Below, piece by piece: positions 2,627 to 59,873 of a DNA stretch of 64,000 nucleotides; the stretch's first letter is position 1, and every line of letters starts with the position of its first letter. The notes beneath the pieces are model-generated. The model was given only the letters and a program-made list of their open reading frames with translations, was not told the DNA's origin and did not search any database. This DNA is from Bacteroidota bacterium (GTDB taxonomy: Bacteria; Bacteroidota; Bacteroidia; Chitinophagales; LD1). The position numbers were made by a program, and so were the translations under genes. Location: assembly GCA_947461105.1 (NCBI GenBank), contig CANHIG010000001.1, positions 1,974 through 65,973 on the forward strand. Direction: 5' to 3'.

Positions 2627-5600
2627 ATGAAAAATTTCTTACTCGCTTCAATCGTAATTTTTTCTTTTTTCACTATGCGTGCCCAAAGTACTATCACAAA
2701 TGGAAGCATGGAGACTTGGACCAATGTAGGCGCTGCAACCGAGGAGCCTCAACAATGGAATAGCAATAAAACAGGCGGTGGCAACGCTGCAACTCCCGGA
2801 CAAACTTGTTTCCGCGAAACAACAAACCCTCATAGTGGCACCTATTGTGCTAAGGTGAAAACTACATCATACATTGGCACAGTAGTAAATGGTGCACTTA
2901 CAACCGGAAAAGTAGAAGCCCCGACTTTTACCAAGGCAGATGGATATATCCGCAATATTGCAGGAGATCCAAACTATGCTATGACTTTCACTGCAAGACC
3001 CGATAGTTTTGTATTTTGGTATCGCTATACTAAAGCCGGTAGTGACTATCCAAAAGTAGAGGCAAGGCTGAATGTAGGTTATGCCTACTCTCCTGAAACT
3101 CCTAGCAATAACAATCATCCTGACAGTACACAGAACATCATAGCAAGAGCATTATGGCAAGGTGCTGCTGCTGATCAAGCAACTTGGGTAAGGATTTCGG
3201 TGCCATTTACTTATGTAGCTGGCGCAGCTGGACAAAGAACCCCTCAATATGTTTTCATAACAAGCACCAGCACCGGTGATCAAGCCGGGGGAACAAGTGG
3301 AAGCACACTTTGGCTAGATGACTTTGAAGCAATTTACAATCCAAAAATTGCTACCAATAGTATAACCCCTAGCACCTATTATGTTTCATCATCAACAGGT
3401 TCTTCTATTTCCGTTCCATTTACCTATAACGGAACATTCCAGGCTGGTAATGTCTTTACAGCTCAGCTCAGTGATGCATCAGGTTCATTTGCTACACCTG
3501 TAGCTATCGGAACAATAAGCTTATCAGCAAGCAATGTTTGGCAACAAACTGCTACAATCAGCGGAACTATTCCGGCAGGGACTGCGACAGGCACAGGCTA
3601 CAGAGTAAGAGTAGTAAGCAATAATCCGGCTGTAACAGGAACTGATAACGGTTCAAATATTACCATCAATTTAGTTTCAAACTCTATTGCACCTTCTACT
3701 ACGCAAACTATCATCACAAATGCAAACGGAACTGTACTAAATGTAACAGAAACAACAGGGTCTAATTCTAGAGAATGGAAATACACTACTACTTCGGGTA
3801 GCGGCTATGGCTCTTTTGGATCTGCACAAACTGCACTAAGCTATACTCCTAATTTTTCATCTTCGGGTACATATTATGTAGTATGTGAAACTACATACCC
3901 TGGAGGTATTTTAGTTCGTAGCAATGAAGTTCAAATAAATGTAATTGGAAATTCAATTGCACCTCCTGCACCTCAGTCCATCTCTCAGGGTTCAAATGGG
4001 ACCATACTAACTGTTACTGAATCACAAACTGCAACATCAAGAGTTTGGAAATATTCAACAACCCAAGGCGGACCTTACAATGTTTTTTCTCCTACAGAAA
4101 CAGGAACTACATACACTCCAAACTTTGCTAATAGCGGTATCTACTATGTTATCTGCGAAAGTACAATGGGAGGATTTCCTGTAAAAAGCAATGAAGTGGT
4201 AATAACTGTAAATGCTGTTAACTTATCTACTGGCGCTATTACTGGTTCACCTTTTGAATTTAGCCCAAGTGCACCAAATACAAATAATGTTACTGTACCA
4301 TATACAACAACTGGTTCCGTTTTCATAAACGGCAATATTTTTACCGCACAGCTTTCAGATGCAAGTGGTTCTTTTTCCTCTGCTACTGCTATTGGAACTG
4401 TAACTGATACAACAACAGGAACTATTTCAGCTATCATTCCATCATCTACACCGGCAGGTACTGCATACAGAATAAGAGTAGTAAGCAGTAACATTGCATT
4501 GAACGGAAGCGATAACGGAACAAATTTAGTTGTTGATCAGTTTAACAACAGCATAAGTCCTTCTACTACTCAATCTATTTTATTTAATACAAACGGAACT
4601 GTATTAAATGTGAATGCTTCTCAAAATGCTACTCATGAGTGGAAGTATAGCACTACAATCGGAGGTGCTTATCAAAGCTTTAATCCTGTGAAAACAGGAA
4701 GTAGCTATACTCCAAACTTCTCTGCCCCGGGCACTTACTATGTAGTTTGCGTTTCGAAAAATCGATACAACGATTATGTAACCAGTAATGAAGTGCAAAT
4801 CATAGTTAATAATGGAAACATACTCACCACTTTGGCTGTTTCAGGTTCTCCTTATTTAGTATCGTCAAAAGCAAATGTTCAGGTGAGCGTTACTTTCAGT
4901 TCAAATGTATACTTCAATCCGGGCAATAGTTTTGCAGTTGAATTATCTGACCAAACAGGTTCTTTTGCCTCTCCTGTATTATTGGGTACTGCATCTGGAA
5001 CCACTGTTGCTCCTCTCACAGTTCAGATTCCAAATAACAGCGTTTATGGCACTCAATACAGAATCAGAGTAGCATCTTCTGATCCTTTATTGTATGGCAC
5101 TGATAACGGAACCAACTTATCTATAATTCCTTTTGAGACATCTGTTGCTCTTCCGGATACACAGCGCTTATATTTGAATGTTGCTGGAACTACTGTTACC
5201 GTTACTGAAAGTCATCCGTCTACTCGTAAATGGCTATACTCGCAGTTCTCAGGTTTTAGCTACAATCCATTCAATCCGGCTGCTACTGGAACTTCATATG
5301 CTCCTAAAGTGAATGCATTGGGTACCTATTATATGATTTGTCGCTCTGTAAATGCTGTGAACGATACTGTTGACTCAAGAGAGATCGTATTGATTGTAAC
5401 CAGAGATACTACAGGAATTGACAACACTACTACTACGATAAAAATGTATACGCAAAGTGGCTATCTGAATATCATCCGTGATGAAGCTAAAGATGAAAAT
5501 TTTGATTTGTATAACATGAACGGACAGCTGGTTTTATCTTCAAGACTGATTGATGCTAACATTAAAATTGATATCAGCAATCTCTCGGATGGAATATATT

Positions 5601-19948: not shown

Positions 19949-20709
19949 GATTGCTGATTTTTGGATGCATAAAGTTGTTGCAAGATTTGATATCTGAGTC
20001 TTGTACTATGTGCCGACATTTTTGCAATTGTCATACCTTCTCTGCCATCAAGCCAACCAAATTTTACGACATAGCCAACCAGAAATTTAATAGCAGGTTT
20101 CAGATAAAGGCTATAAAGCGAACTATGTTTTGAATGCTGAAAATCGCTTTGCGCAGCAAGTGCAGCATAGGATTCGGACTTGACACGAAAGGCCTCCTCA
20201 CTTTCAAAACTATAATGATAACAGAGTCCTTTAATTTTCTCGATTTTTATAGATTTATCAAAAATCAATTTTTCGTGAACAAGCCCTTCCCACTTTGCGA
20301 TTCGCCTGTCGTATATCCTTGTTTTCCAATCCGGGAACCACCCGCTGTGCTTAATAAATTTACCGCAAAAATTAGTCATTCGATTAAAGCGATACACTGC
20401 ATTTTCATTGAGGTCTTTCAGCGCATTTATTTCGTGATTCAACTCTTTGGAAAGTACTTCGTCAGCATCTATCGCCAATATAAAATCATTGGCTGCTAAA
20501 GAAGCAGCATAATTTCTGGCATCAGAAAAATCAGTCCACTCGCGTTTCTGAAAATTCACATTGTAGTTCAGACAAATTTGTTGCGTATTGTCTGTTGAGC
20601 GCGCATCCAGCACCACAATATCATCAGCTATATCATAGAGTGACTTTAAACAACGATCTATATTTCGCGCTTCATTTTTTGTGATCATAACAACAGACAA
20701 CTTTCTCAT
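19945..20709 (-). CDS. Glycosyltransferase family 2 (LPS-core type)
   Basis: The N-terminus LSVVMITKNEARNIDRCLKSL and a DxD motif (AIDADEV) are present. It overlaps both neighbouring genes by 4 nt. Confidence 0.85.
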   Translation of the reverse strand: MRKLSVVMITKNEARNIDRCLKSLYDIADDIVVLDARSTDNTQQICLNYNVNFQKREWTDFSDARNYAASLAANDFILAIDADEVLSKELNHEINALKDLNENAVYRFNRMTNFCGKFIKHSGWFPDWKTRIYDRRIAKWEGLVHEKLIFDKSIKIEKIKGLCYHYSFESEEAFRVKSESYAALAAQSDFQHSKHSSLYSLYLKPAIKFLVGYVVKFGWLDGREGMTIAKMSAHSTRLRYQILQQLYASKNQQS

Positions 20710-21983
20710 ACTTCAGCACTCATACGTTTTAAAAATAGCATGGAGAAAAGCATAAATAATGTGCCTCCAACCTGTTCCTCCAAGGTATATTCTACCATAA
20801 ACGACACAGCCATTACCAGATGAAATATCAATCCTATATAAGTTGTACGGCTTTTGAAAAGCCAAAGCGGCAGCAGCCATGCCATCAAGAAAAAAATCAT
20901 TCCAATAATACCTGTACTGCTTAATGTCCAGAGAAATTCATTATGCGGCATTTTTCTACTCTCCTCCGAAACAACTGTTGGAAAAAGTTGACGAGACATC
21001 TCTTTAGATTCTTTTAGAATATCACCAGTTCCCACGCCAAACCAAATATTTTTTTTAAATAGCTCAACGCCTGTTTTGAGCGAAGCCAGGCGCATAGCAT
21101 CTGAGTTGCCATCTATCTTGCCTATTTGCCACTGGCTATAGTCGTAGCGCATGTAGGATATTCTGTTTTGCAAAGAAGGTGCGAAAGTAAAGCTCAGCCA
21201 ACCAATAATAATGGCCGATAACGTCATGCCTAAAATCAATTTCCACTGGCGTGTTTTGAAAGAAAAATAAACGACCGTGAATGCTAAGCCAACATACAAG
21301 GAAAGCAATCCGCTACGAACGCTCAGAATATGGATTGCGATAAAAAGATATGCCCACACAAAGAGCAACCACTTTTTATAAGAGTTGATATAAAGCCAAA
21401 TTGTCGCAAAAAATGCAAAGACTAAAAGCAGGCTATATCTGATATGTGAAAACGGCACAGGCATCCTGCCTCCACTAAAAAAAGATTCATTGATTTGCTG
21501 AAAATGCTGTATGTAACGAAACAAGAAAACCCCTGAACTGATTACCATGAGCAAAACGTATACTTTCAAAATTTTGGCGATTACTTTTTCGGATATCGGG
21601 GGCAACAACCAAAAGGCTATTGGCAAAACCAGAAATGGTAGTTTGAGTAAAAGCCAGGAGAGCCACTGCCCGGTGTTTTCAGAATAAAAAAAGGAATAAA
21701 GAAATGGCAGGAAAAAAAATACAGGAATCAGCAGAACATAGCTTGAGTATGGAATCTTCGCATTTGCCGAAAAAAAATTAAAAATTCCCAATACCAATAA
21801 ACATGCTACGCCAATGGAAATAAGAGCCCGAGACCCTATAAAACCTATAAAAATCATAGCAATAAAAAGCAACAGCCCCCGTTCAAAAAACTGTTCTCTA
21901 TTTTTGTTTAAAAAAAAATCTGCGCGCGTCAAAATGCTTCTGTTATTTTTATGCAATCTAAAAAATCCTTTTGTTGGAGACAC
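20706..21983 (-). CDS. O-antigen ligase (Wzy_C)-family polytopic membrane protein
   Basis: About 10-11 hydrophobic helices plus a periplasmic-loop region with PHNEFLWTLSSTGIIG, a Wzy_C-like motif. It is clustered with the GT2 and GT4 genes. Confidence 0.7.
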   Translation of the reverse strand: MSPTKGFFRLHKNNRSILTRADFFLNKNREQFFERGLLLFIAMIFIGFIGSRALISIGVACLLVLGIFNFFSANAKIPYSSYVLLIPVFFFLPFLYSFFYSENTGQWLSWLLLKLPFLVLPIAFWLLPPISEKVIAKILKVYVLLMVISSGVFLFRYIQHFQQINESFFSGGRMPVPFSHIRYSLLLVFAFFATIWLYINSYKKWLLFVWAYLFIAIHILSVRSGLLSLYVGLAFTVVYFSFKTRQWKLILGMTLSAIIIGWLSFTFAPSLQNRISYMRYDYSQWQIGKIDGNSDAMRLASLKTGVELFKKNIWFGVGTGDILKESKEMSRQLFPTVVSEESRKMPHNEFLWTLSSTGIIGMIFFLMAWLLPLWLFKSRTTYIGLIFHLVMAVSFMVEYTLEEQVGGTLFMLFSMLFLKRMSAEV

Positions 21984-42119: not shown

Positions 42120-43286
42120 ATGAAAGAAGCAAGGAATTTTTATTTTAGCGGTATGAGTAACTATGTAGTTTCTGCAAGAAAATACCGCCCGGCAAGGTTT
42201 TCTGACATGATTGGTCAGGAAAGTGTATCTGCTACCTTGCAGAATGCTATAAAAACCGAGCAGTTGGCTCACTCATTTCTTTTTTGCGGACCACGCGGAG
42301 TAGGTAAAACCACTGCTGCTCGTATTCTTGCGAAAACCATCAACTGTGAAAATATCACTGCTGATATTGAGGCTTGCAACGCTTGTCCATCCTGTGTTTC
42401 ATTTAATAGCAACGCTTCGTTCAATATTTATGAGCTTGATGCTGCTTCAAATAATTCAGTTGATGATATCAGGGCACTCGTAGATCAGGTGCGTTTTCCG
42501 CCACAATCAGGCAAATTTAAAATCTACATAATAGATGAGGTTCATATGCTCTCCAATCAGGCATTCAATGCCTTTTTAAAAACTTTGGAGGAGCCGCCAT
42601 CATACTGCAAGTTTATATTGGCTACTACTGAAAAACATAAGATATTACCTACTATTCTCTCCCGTTGCCAGATCTTCGATTTCAAGCGAATGACCATTGA
42701 CGGAATTGTAAATCACTTGAAATCAATTGCAACAAAAGAAGCAATAGAAGTAGAAGATGATGCCCTGCATGTGATAGCTCAGAAATGTGATGGTGGAATG
42801 CGCGATGCGCTCTCTATGTTTGACAGATTAGCAAGTTTTTCAGGTGGGAAGTTGACCTACAAATCTGCCTTAGAAAATCTGAATGTACTTGATCACGATT
42901 ATTACTTCAAACTTACTGAAGCACTTGCAGTGCAAGACTTTTCAGCAGTGATGATTCATTTCACAGATATTTTGCAGCGTGGTTTTGAAGGAGATGACTT
43001 AATTATAGGGCTGTGCGAACACTTTCGCAATTTGCTATTTGCCAAGAATGCAGATACGGTCTCACTGATGGAAACAAGCGATAGTTTAAAGCAGAAATAT
43101 AGTGAACAGGCGCAGCTAATCTCTTCTTCGTTTTTGTTAAGCTGCCTTCAGTTTGGCAATCAATGTGACATCCAATATAAATCAGCCAAAAACAAAAGGT
43201 TGCTGGTAGAACTAACGCTGATGCGGATGTGTTATGTAAATCAACTGATAGATGCTTTAGAAGCGTCAAAAAAAAAAGTAGCATAG
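42120..43286 (+). CDS. dnaX: DNA polymerase III subunit gamma/tau, 0-frame product (gamma-length)
   Basis: Walker A GPRGVGKTT, a zinc module CENITADIEACNACPSC, DEVHML and the sensor motif SRCQIF are present. The ORF stops 3 codons after an A10 run. Confidence 0.9.
   Translation: MKEARNFYFSGMSNYVVSARKYRPARFSDMIGQESVSATLQNAIKTEQLAHSFLFCGPRGVGKTTAARILAKTINCENITADIEACNACPSCVSFNSNASFNIYELDAASNNSVDDIRALVDQVRFPPQSGKFKIYIIDEVHMLSNQAFNAFLKTLEEPPSYCKFILATTEKHKILPTILSRCQIFDFKRMTIDGIVNHLKSIATKEAIEVEDDALHVIAQKCDGGMRDALSMFDRLASFSGGKLTYKSALENLNVLDHDYYFKLTEALAVQDFSAVMIHFTDILQRGFEGDDLIIGLCEHFRNLLFAKNADTVSLMETSDSLKQKYSEQAQLISSSFLLSCLQFGNQCDIQYKSAKNKRLLVELTLMRMCYVNQLIDALEASKKKVA
43268..43277 (+). other. A10 homopolymer: candidate slippery or slippage site in dnaX
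   Basis: The 0-frame reads TCA AAA AAA AAA GTA GCA TAG. The -1 frame stays open to 43855. Confidence 0.5.
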
Positions 43287-43855
43287 CAGACCCCCAAAGC
43301 ACGCTGCCAAATTTGCCCCCTATAATAGTTAAAGAAAAAATCGACTTCGTACCACAGCCTCAGGAAGCGCCTTCTATTCGAAAAACACCAAAAGTTATCA
43401 AGTTTGCTGATTTGAAATCAGCAGAAACAAATCCTGATACCACCGCTGAGATTAAACCTCAAACACCCGAAAAGAAAGAGATTCTAAAGATTGCTTTAAA
43501 TGAGAATTCGCTAAAGCAAGTATGGGAAGAAACAGCAAATAATTTTAAAGAGAGCAAGCCCGGCATCAGCAACCTCATGCTGCTTTATCTGCCTAAAATA
43601 GAAGAAAGTACTATAGTGCTAAACATAGAAAGTGCTGTGCAAAAAAATGCTTTTGAGGAACAATGGGAACATATTGAGCGTACAATATTACAAAGATTTG
43701 AGGGAAATAACACGATGCGCTTAACAATGGAATTGCATGCGGACTCGGGTAAGAAAAAACTTTTCGGACCACAAGAGAAATTAAAACGGCTCATCGAAAT
43801 CAATCCTGCCATCTCTAATTTTACTAAGGAATTAGGGTTGGATTTTGATTATTAA
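43268..43855 (+). CDS. dnaX: dnaX tau-specific C-terminal extension, in the -1 frame relative to 42120..43286
   Basis: The -1 frame is open from 43229 to 43855. It encodes a Pro/Lys-rich linker and then a structured C-terminal region (LKQVWEETANNF...LGLDFDY). There is no convincing independent start. The fused product would be about 578 aa. Confidence 0.6.
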   Translation, partial: KKKSSIADPQSTLPNLPPIIVKEKIDFVPQPQEAPSIRKTPKVIKFADLKSAETNPDTTAEIKPQTPEKKEILKIALNENSLKQVWEETANNFKESKPGISNLMLLYLPKIEESTIVLNIESAVQKNAFEEQWEHIERTILQRFEGNNTMRLTMELHADSGKKKLFGPQEKLKRLIEINPAISNFTKELGLDFDY

Positions 43856-58481: not shown

Positions 58482-59873
58482 ATGGCTGAACTTGAAATGC
58501 AAAACATGAAAAACACTATTTCAAAAATACTTCCATTTGTAATAATTGGCAGTGTGATTATCATACTATCATCGCTACATTTCGGGTGGTTAAATTCTTT
58601 TTTCTTTGATGCTGAGCATGCAGATGTGCAGGGTATCGATTATTTTTCTGCGCCAAAATCCTACTTGAATTTACTTGAAAAGAGAAGCATGTTTGACACT
58701 TGGGGGGGGGCTACTTATGGCCCACATGCTACCTGGTATCTGGCTCACCCGGCATTTAGCGTTTTTGTAGCATCCTGGTTTTCCTTTTTCTCTCCGTGGA
58801 CAAGCTATTGGCTATTTGTAATATTTTCGCTTGCAATCATGGTATTCTGCGGATGGCTCATCGCAAATACCACTAATGATTTATTCAAAAAACAGCTGAG
58901 CTTCTTTGTCTTGCTTTGTGCATTTCCTACCTACTGGCTATTGTTTGTAGGCAATATTCATGCACCATTGGTTTTAGCACTGACACTAATCATGTTGGGA
59001 ATATTTGATCTCACATATAATGAAAATATTGAAACCGGCAATGCAAAACTACTGTCAGGGTTGCTCATTTCGTTTTTTACCAAACCCATAGTTTTACTGA
59101 TGCTCCCTCTGCTACTAGTCACAAAAGAAACGCGCAAAACCACCTTCGGAAGCCTGTTAATTTATGGATTCGTTTCTATACTGTTTATAGTTATTCCCAT
59201 ACTGAATCCTGAAGGAGTTGGGCTTGGAAAAATACTCAGTATCGATTTTGAATTTGTGAAGCAGCACATGAATATTTATAAAAACAATTTTGTTTTGAAT
59301 GAATACATGAAAGATAATAGTATGCATTGGTTCAATCTTATTGCTCAATCAGACTATAAGCTAATGCATATTGATGTGTACTCATTGCCTGTATTTATTG
59401 ATACTATTGTAGGGCACGAAACCGCAGCGGGGATTTACAAAACACCGATTTACCTCAGTATGATTTTGTCACTGGGTGTTATTTTCATAGAAGATAAAAA
59501 AATAAGATTGGAAAACACCTTGTTGCTTTTGATGGCGATTCCGCTCACCTTCTTTTTAAGCTACAATACTGTTTGGGAATATCAGTTCACATCGGCACTT
59601 CCTATGGTCGCAATGCTTCCTGTGCTTAGAGAAAAGAATGTATTTTACAAAAAGTATATTCCTATACTGTTCACAATTGGCTTGTTTTTTTGCTTGCCTA
59701 GTCTGTATTTTTTAGTGCGGAAATCCGACTTCACCAATAACGATTTGACACTGATTCGGCTTGACAGAGTTTTGCCTGCACTGCTCTTATTTTTAATTAT
59801 GGTATTTATTCTAATTGGCTCAATGAAACGGCATATTGATTTGAGCATTGAAGATGCTCCTGAATTAAATTAA
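58482..59873 (+). CDS. Polytopic membrane protein, GT-C-like (DUF2029/GT87-like) candidate glycosyltransferase
   Basis: About 11-12 hydrophobic helices. The first extracytoplasmic loop is acidic (FFFDAEHADVQGIDYF), as in GT-C enzymes. It starts 3 nt after the pyk stop. The family call is weak. Confidence 0.45.
   Translation: MAELEMQNMKNTISKILPFVIIGSVIIILSSLHFGWLNSFFFDAEHADVQGIDYFSAPKSYLNLLEKRSMFDTWGGATYGPHATWYLAHPAFSVFVASWFSFFSPWTSYWLFVIFSLAIMVFCGWLIANTTNDLFKKQLSFFVLLCAFPTYWLLFVGNIHAPLVLALTLIMLGIFDLTYNENIETGNAKLLSGLLISFFTKPIVLLMLPLLLVTKETRKTTFGSLLIYGFVSILFIVIPILNPEGVGLGKILSIDFEFVKQHMNIYKNNFVLNEYMKDNSMHWFNLIAQSDYKLMHIDVYSLPVFIDTIVGHETAAGIYKTPIYLSMILSLGVIFIEDKKIRLENTLLLLMAIPLTFFLSYNTVWEYQFTSALPMVAMLPVLREKNVFYKKYIPILFTIGLFFCLPSLYFLVRKSDFTNNDLTLIRLDRVLPALLLFLIMVFILIGSMKRHIDLSIEDAPELN

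Follow-up and report, generated by a model that had tools for sequence, protein, structure and literature searches.

The dnaX gene of an uncultured, Chitinophagales-like lineage of Bacteroidota raises the question of how the tau subunit of DNA polymerase III (Pol III) can be produced from a gene whose coding frame stops shortly after a run of ten adenines (A10). The gene lies on contig CANHIG010000001.1 (assembly GCA_947461105.1), within a stretch of 64,000 nucleotides (positions 1,974 to 65,973, forward strand) that is referred to below as the window. The 0 frame encodes a gamma-length product and the tau-specific region follows in the -1 frame. The comparative analysis carried out here indicates that this split is very probably a functional recoding. 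The gene would use programmed transcriptional slippage (realignment) at the conserved A10 run as the main route to tau, a reading to which a probability of about three in four is assigned.

Organization of the dnaX locus

The 0-frame open reading frame (ORF) extends from position 42120 to 43286 on the forward strand (388 aa). All close homologues begin with MSNYVV, which corresponds to the ATG at 42153, and the true start of dnaX is probably located at this codon. Initiation at another ATG of this frame, at 42120, would extend the protein by 11 residues (MKEARNFYFSG, 42120-42152) that are missing from the starts called in the close homologues. The product shows the Pfam domains DNA_pol3_delta2 (PF13177, 3e-44), DNAX_ATPase_lid (PF22608, 8e-13) and DNA_pol3_gamma3 (PF12169, 2e-10), together with the Walker A motif GPRGVGKT and the arginine-finger SRC motif (LSRCQ), and it reaches 434 bits with the NCBIfam model TIGR02397 (dnaX_nterm, cutoff 250).

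The 3' end of the 0 frame reads GAA GCG TCA AAA AAA AAA GTA GCA TAG, so that the gamma C-terminus is EASKKKVA. The -1 frame is already open 5' of the A10 run and continues to the TAA at 43853-43855, and the stop in the +1 frame lies only one codon past the run (Table 1). When one A was added in silico, a fused protein of 578 aa (567 aa from M12) with the junction peptide EASKKKSSIADPQ was obtained, which passes the NCBIfam model for the gamma/tau subunit of DNA polymerase III (NF011531, 710 bits, cutoff 685). When one A was removed, the lysines KKK were directly followed by the TAG at 43279-43281. Because the A9 and A10 forms both stop, one frame of the three leads to tau and two lead to gamma. 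A preliminary description of this DNA, made from its letters alone, had claimed the A10 run, the 0-frame stop three codons further on, the open -1 frame and a fused product of about 578 aa with the size of a gamma/tau protein, and all of this is confirmed by the sequence. Its claim that the default product is short, and that a -1 shift or an additional A is required for a product of tau length, also holds, and the same layout is conserved in relatives.

A10 is the longest homopolymer of the window. About 0.3 A10 runs per strand are expected per 64 kb from base composition, so the length of the run is unremarkable by itself and its significance derives from its position and conservation.

Table 1. 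Coordinates of the features of the dnaX locus in the window.
Feature	Position	Strand	Description	Basis
dnaX 0-frame ORF (gamma-length)	42153-43286	+	377 aa from M12; clamp-loader domains I-III	Pfam/NCBIfam
Predicted RNA hairpin, GAUGCUU-UAG-AAGCGUC	43251-43267	+	3' end adjoins the A10 run	Folding
A10 slippery run	43268-43277	+	Frame-change site	Read from sequence
tau-specific region, -1 frame	43277-43855	+	192 codons plus TAA (43853-43855)	
+1-frame TAG	43279-43281	+	Would end translation of A9 or A12 transcripts, giving gamma	
0-frame TAG	43284-43286	+	End of gamma, 3 codons past A10	

Survey of dnaX loci in Bacteroidota

A total of 89 loci were compared, comprising at least 80 Bacteroidota dnaX genes listed by a scan of species-representative genomes with the fused protein, the relatives of the window gene and the window itself; the listed loci are a broad sample of the phylum, not close relatives. 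An A-run of at least 8 nucleotides is present at the end of domain III in 74 of these loci (63 A10, 5 A9, 3 A11, 2 A12 and 1 A13), and in all 74 a single frame remains open, for about 200 codons. In 93% of the A-run loci a stop occurs within 7 codons in each of the two non-tau frames, compared with 17% at control positions of the same genes; for the two off-frames taken separately, the median distance to the stop is 2 and 4 codons, versus 8 and 11 in the controls. One open frame flanked by close stops in both of the others constitutes a signature of the Thermus type.

The frame in which the tau part is open varies, mostly at A10 runs: it is frame 0 in 52 loci, -1 in 20 and +1 in 2. The -1 loci are spread over Flavobacteriales, Cytophagales, Bacteroidales and Chitinophagales, in addition to the clade of the window. 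Differing shift directions among orthologues are the criterion of transcriptional realignment used by Antonov et al. (2013, PMC3711429), and the occurrence of tau in the 0, -1 and +1 frames therefore favours realignment. The two +1 loci carry A10 at L040:4095-4104 (a Paludibacter metagenome-assembled genome, MAG) and L052:4093-4102 (Bacteroidaceae), and as read from their sequences tau would need the loss of one A or the gain of two. This +1 layout was not found described in the available part of Antonov et al. (2013, PMC3711429).

Lysine codons elsewhere in the surveyed genes are AAA in 68% of the cases. High-GC genes that are poor in AAA retain the run, such as L064 (0 AAA and 17 AAG elsewhere) and L086 (3 AAA and 20 AAG), so that selection acts on the nucleotides of the run.

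A predicted hairpin upstream of the A10 run

Folding of the window sequence predicted an RNA hairpin of -5.7 to -5.9 kcal/mol that directly precedes the A-run (Table 1). Its pairing is standard in 48 of 48 pair cells among eight sequences of the clade, and two of the six pairs show compensatory changes that involve third codon positions (U-A, A-U and U-G at one pair; A-U, U-A, C-G and U-G at the other). None of 500 shuffles matched the observed values, and slid registers pair in 21-44% of the cells. Hairpins of -5 kcal/mol or lower that end 0-3 nt before the run occur in 50% of the 74 A-run loci versus 16% of control positions (Mann-Whitney p 8e-11, uncorrected for phylogeny), and their stem sequences are unrelated between lineages.

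The geometry of the predicted hairpin is that of an intrinsic terminator with an A-tract in place of the U-tract, and this structure may be a nascent-RNA stimulator of slippage. A more far-reaching proposal, which is put forward only tentatively, is that the hairpin adjoining A10 is a selected stimulator or tuner of RNA polymerase slippage, terminator-like with an rA:dT hybrid and the first known of its kind in an essential cellular gene, and that a phylum-wide A10 module sets the tau:gamma ratio while the default product has been flipped repeatedly. No mention of the upstream hairpin, of A10 throughout the phylum in one-ORF genes or of the +1-type loci was found in the literature searched, which is no proof of absence; of the features of the window, the hairpin is the one that may be new. 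If it is functional, hairpin-assisted slippage, described for a mobile element, would also operate in a core housekeeping gene.

Proposed mechanism of tau synthesis

According to the slippage model, faithful A10 transcripts would be translated into gamma, with domains I-III and the terminal residues KKKVA. A fraction of the transcripts would gain an A (A11, or A14), bringing the downstream 192 codons into frame and giving full-length tau, which would add the linker and the C-terminal domain predicted to contact the polymerase and the helicase. Transcripts with A9 or A12 would meet the TAG at 43279 and likewise give gamma. The hairpin, of 6-7 bp, probably folds in the nascent transcript, at the upstream boundary of an all-A:T RNA-DNA hybrid, where it may promote or tune realignment in the fashion of a terminator hairpin.

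Several points weigh against this model. Comparative sequence is the only source from which slippage is deduced here, and the same holds for the transcriptional timing of the frame change, for its efficiency and for what the hairpin does. About 40-50% of the surveyed loci have a weak hairpin or none, and the enrichment statistics ignore shared ancestry. The two-ORF A10 type has been described bioinformatically only, and no experiment on it was found in the literature searched. Finally, the A10 run contains A_AAA_AAA heptamers, on which ribosomes can shift to the -1 frame or slide, so that translation may contribute to the frame change.

This last point leads to the alternative that tau is mainly produced by -1 programmed ribosomal frameshifting or sliding on A_AAA_AAA in a faithful A10 mRNA, as in E. 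coli with the products reversed. Such slippery heptamers are present in the run in any phase, the predicted product would be identical to that of an A11 transcript, and the review of Atkins et al. (2016, PMC5009743) treats the reversed dnaX genes as frameshifting and includes a Chlorobium candidate with E. coli-like stimulators. The same review indicates that A_AAA_AAA in the 0 frame is far less shift-prone in E. coli than A_AAA_AAG, and the latter is absent from the 0 frame of the window, where the run is read UCA AAA AAA AAA GUA, so that the G opens the next codon. The stimulators of a ribosomal shift were not found either. The RNA downstream of the run is not significantly structured in the window (z -0.56 for 60 nt and +1.24 for 120 nt), in agreement with the preliminary description, which had seen no strong downstream hairpin, and in five relatives the z values range from -0.3 to -0.9 and no structure is shared. 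No AGGAGG-like Shine-Dalgarno element is present in the upstream sequence GATGCTTTAGAAGCGTC; Bacteroidota make little use of Shine-Dalgarno pairing. Moreover, ten adenines are kept by selection where seven would suffice, close stops are kept in both non-tau frames, +1-type loci exist, and any hairpin immediately preceding the site would be held unwound within the ribosome during decoding. The ribosomal route is thus considered unlikely as the main source of tau. The preliminary description had left the mechanism open between the ribosomal and the transcriptional routes; the comparative evidence favours transcriptional slippage, because the tau frame varies among loci and no downstream structure is found.

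The tau-specific region

The possibility was also considered that the gene has undergone fission or decay, gamma being the sole DnaX product of the clamp loader and the downstream ORF either a separately started gene or a dying remnant. Gene callers do mark separate downstream ORFs of 147-223 aa in relatives. In the window, no ATG precedes the folded domain of the -1 ORF, and its sole upstream start is the GTG at 43229, which lies within the gamma coding region, as anticipated in the preliminary description, which had seen no convincing start of its own. A scan of the junction yielded seven promoter-like sites versus a mean of 6.6 in shuffled sequence, none of them at the junction, with a sigma-70 consensus that is unsuited to Bacteroidota; four terminator-like sites were obtained versus 1.7 in shuffled sequence, again none at the junction. 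Rfam and tRNA scans of the window gave no match.

The preliminary description had also proposed a linker followed by a structured C-terminal domain, and this is supported by the AlphaFold model of the tau-specific part (53-sequence alignment), in which the predicted local distance difference test (pLDDT) is low for residues 1-70 and above 90 for residues 71-150. A disordered Pro/Lys-rich linker would thus occupy approximately 43277-43486 and a folded alpha/beta domain approximately 43487-43852. A Foldseek search with this domain gave nothing at E <= 1e-3; the top matches are KH-like domains of replication proteins (domain I of DnaA, E 1.4e-3, and DciA) and also RbfA, and domain V of E. coli tau (2AYA) is a weak match at rank 13 (E 0.16). 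The tau-specific region aligns clearly with the C-termini of one-ORF DnaX proteins, and its identity is therefore based on sequence homology and not on fold.

A tblastn search located the tau-specific region in the -1 frame of relatives too, where the ORF is open for 192-207 codons. Between the window and the relative L001, the ratio of nonsynonymous to synonymous divergence (dN/dS) is 0.03 for the gamma part, which is thus also under purifying selection. For the tau-specific part dN is 0.28 and synonymous sites are saturated, so that a ratio cannot be computed, with dN far below the saturated dS; therefore, the -1 ORF encodes a protein under purifying selection and is not a remnant. In the Pol III holoenzyme, coupling of the polymerases requires tau to be attached to the clamp loader by its domains I-III. 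Moreover, the close stops past the run in both non-tau frames would stay unexplained. Fission or decay is accordingly judged very improbable.

Annotation pipelines and gene callers report this dnaX gene as a truncated gamma/tau protein and an orphan hypothetical ORF, and recognising the recoding restores an essential replisome subunit to the annotation.

Conservation of the A10 run in close relatives

In a collection of 5.8 billion proteins, the closest proteins, at 75-91% identity, have gamma length without exception (378-389 aa) and terminate a few residues past EASKKK, full-length DnaX proteins appear only at 63% identity or lower, and no entry matches the 377-aa gamma of the window exactly. 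At the nucleotide level, exactly A10 with the same two-frame layout was found in at least 14 independently assembled relatives that are 70-91% identical in the gamma part and whose synonymous sites have diverged to saturation. The exact run is present in the window, L001, L002, L003, L086, L087 and L089-L096, which come from JGI, NCBI, ENA and Logan and represent different samples, assemblers and species. In these relatives the 0 frame stops 4-5 codons further on (a count that includes the codon in which the run ends), the +1 frame stops after 1-2 codons and tau is in the -1 frame. L085 has A12 with the two-ORF layout unchanged. A metagenome scan with a degenerate DNA pattern located upstream of the run returned one contig only, L087. 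As judged from these assemblies, the two-frame A10 layout of the window is a real, conserved feature. The preliminary description had proposed to check whether orthologues are one ORF or keep the split; close relatives keep it, at A10 or, in L085, at A12, with the exception of the one-ORF locus L088 (Logan), which has A11 and a single fused ORF of 575 aa in the same 90% protein cluster as forms of 379 aa.

The A11 run of L088 (1376-1386) can be compared with the A10 runs of L003 (2483-2492) and L087 (reverse complement, 645-654), which belong to one 90%-identity cluster. It reflects either a natural switch of which product is made by default or an error in the assembly of the homopolymer. The A11 one-ORF form implies that one nucleotide swaps the default product.

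Replication slippage at the DNA level could also toggle A10 and A11, so that subpopulations of cells would make tau by phase variation. A10 tracts are mutable and the A11 variant L088 shares its protein cluster with A10 forms; nevertheless, the assemblies are overwhelmingly A10. Tau is essential in every cell, as established for E. coli, and heritable switching at typical rates cannot supply it cell by cell, which makes this explanation a highly improbable one.

The suggestion of the preliminary description that an A11 run had been miscalled as A10, the true genome having a single tau ORF, is rejected almost entirely, since, even though homopolymers are error-prone and L088 has a fused ORF, exact A10 recurs with the same layout in the at least 14 contigs of differing origin, the other homopolymers of at least 8 bases in the window are all inside intact ORFs, and the layout recurs in many Bacteroidota lineages and in finished genomes reported by Antonov et al. 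(2013, PMC3711429).

Loci without an A-run and other tracts of the window

In three uncultured Bacteroidales MAGs, dnaX lacks an A-run and has an in-frame TAG at the gamma/tau boundary instead (L050:4102-4113, L056:2788-2799 and L065:4099-4110). The context of this TAG is conserved (CCA/ACA TAG ATT GCW AGG), and past it the frame stays open through the tau part for 189-254 codons. When the neighbouring genes were re-read in a rough test with TAG as a sense codon, no clear sign of a genome-wide reassignment emerged, and these loci are candidates for a programmed UAG readthrough that would produce tau. Nothing on UAG readthrough for tau was found in the literature searched. In another Bacteroidales MAG (L036, approximately 4140-4160) the 0 frame ends at a TAA and tau is in the +1 frame for 248 codons, the run at the junction being only A5 (gagtgcTAAaaatccgg). 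An error, a pseudogene and some other type of shift are all conceivable here.

No homopolymer-linked frame breaks were found elsewhere in the window, and the overlapping pairs of neighbouring ORFs that were checked are complete separate genes. A G9 run (58702-58710) lies inside an intact ORF of 463 aa without a Pfam match (58482-59873); it is the sole G or C run longer than 6 in the window (38.6% GC) and is possibly a phase-variation tract. A cluster of A7, A8, A8 and A9 runs (21686-21918, forward strand; T-runs in the coding strand) is located in the N-terminal part of an intact minus-strand O-antigen ligase (Wzy_C) gene (20706-21983).

Comparison with known systems

A recoding of this type has precedents. 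Antonov et al. (2013, NAR 41:6514, PMC3711429) described 17 dnaX genes from 12 genera organized as two ORFs with a -1 frameshift, nine of them with A10, and transcriptional realignment was inferred for this set, which covers Bacteroidetes, Chlorobi and Verrucomicrobia. The A10 cases include Flavobacterium johnsoniae, F. psychrophilum, Cytophaga hutchinsonii, Capnocytophaga, Chlorobium and Coraliomargarita, among others (PMC3711429, Supplementary Figure S3). The window shows the same features, that is, adjacent ORFs in a -1 relation, A10 and recoding needed for tau, with motif and position conserved in orthologues, and its dnaX belongs to the two-ORF A10 type already reported in 2013. Its uncultured lineage is not among the genera seen in that supplementary figure. 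The preliminary description had presented the locus as an inverse of the E. coli arrangement; the layout is real, and it is less novel than was implied, given these earlier cases.

In Thermus thermophilus dnaX (Larsen et al. 2000, PNAS, via PMC1088944), the RNA polymerase slips on an A-run and transcripts with varied run lengths are produced, of which only those that restore the tau frame give tau, the others ending fast as gamma. As in Thermus, a poly-A run of at least 9 lies at the gamma/tau boundary of the window and stops are close in both non-tau frames. In Thermus the run is A9, tau is the 0-frame product and gamma arises from slippage, whereas in the window the run is A10, gamma is the 0-frame product and tau would arise from slippage. 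According to the review of Atkins et al. (2016, PMC5009743), a one-nucleotide change can reverse the default product. Essential tau seems to depend in the window on a 'mistake' of the RNA polymerase, with the A10 module present throughout the phylum while the default flips, and dnaX A10 is a natural system to study how slippage efficiency is set.

The E. coli dnaX gene shifts at A_AAA_AAG with the help of a Shine-Dalgarno-like element about 10 nt 5' of the site and a stem-loop 3' of it, gamma being the shifted product (PMC3711429, PMC5009743). The gene and the two products are the same as in the window, and in both the split falls on lysine codons at the end of domain III. The window, in contrast, has none of the three E. 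coli signals, and the roles of the products are reversed.

The predicted hairpin has a parallel in the IS630 element of Roseiflexus (Penno et al. 2015, via PMC5009743), in which slippage depends on a nascent-RNA stem-loop that adjoins a 9-10 bp RNA-DNA hybrid in a terminator-like manner. Both systems place a hairpin immediately 5' of the slippage motif, 0-3 nt before the A-run in the surveyed dnaX loci. The Roseiflexus case concerns the transposase of an insertion sequence with a short U5C4 motif and the loss of one C, whereas the window has a long A-run in an essential chromosomal gene and the effect of the hairpin is predicted.

The locus also resembles the poly-A frameshifts of Blochmannia and Buchnera that slippage rescues, one of which is in dnaX, and mxiE of Shigella, as the long product needs a non-templated nucleotide in all of them. 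The endosymbiont frameshifts are regarded as erosion tolerated through slippage, and the one in dnaX lies inside the tau-only region, whereas the site of the window stands at the gamma/tau boundary and is conserved across the phylum.

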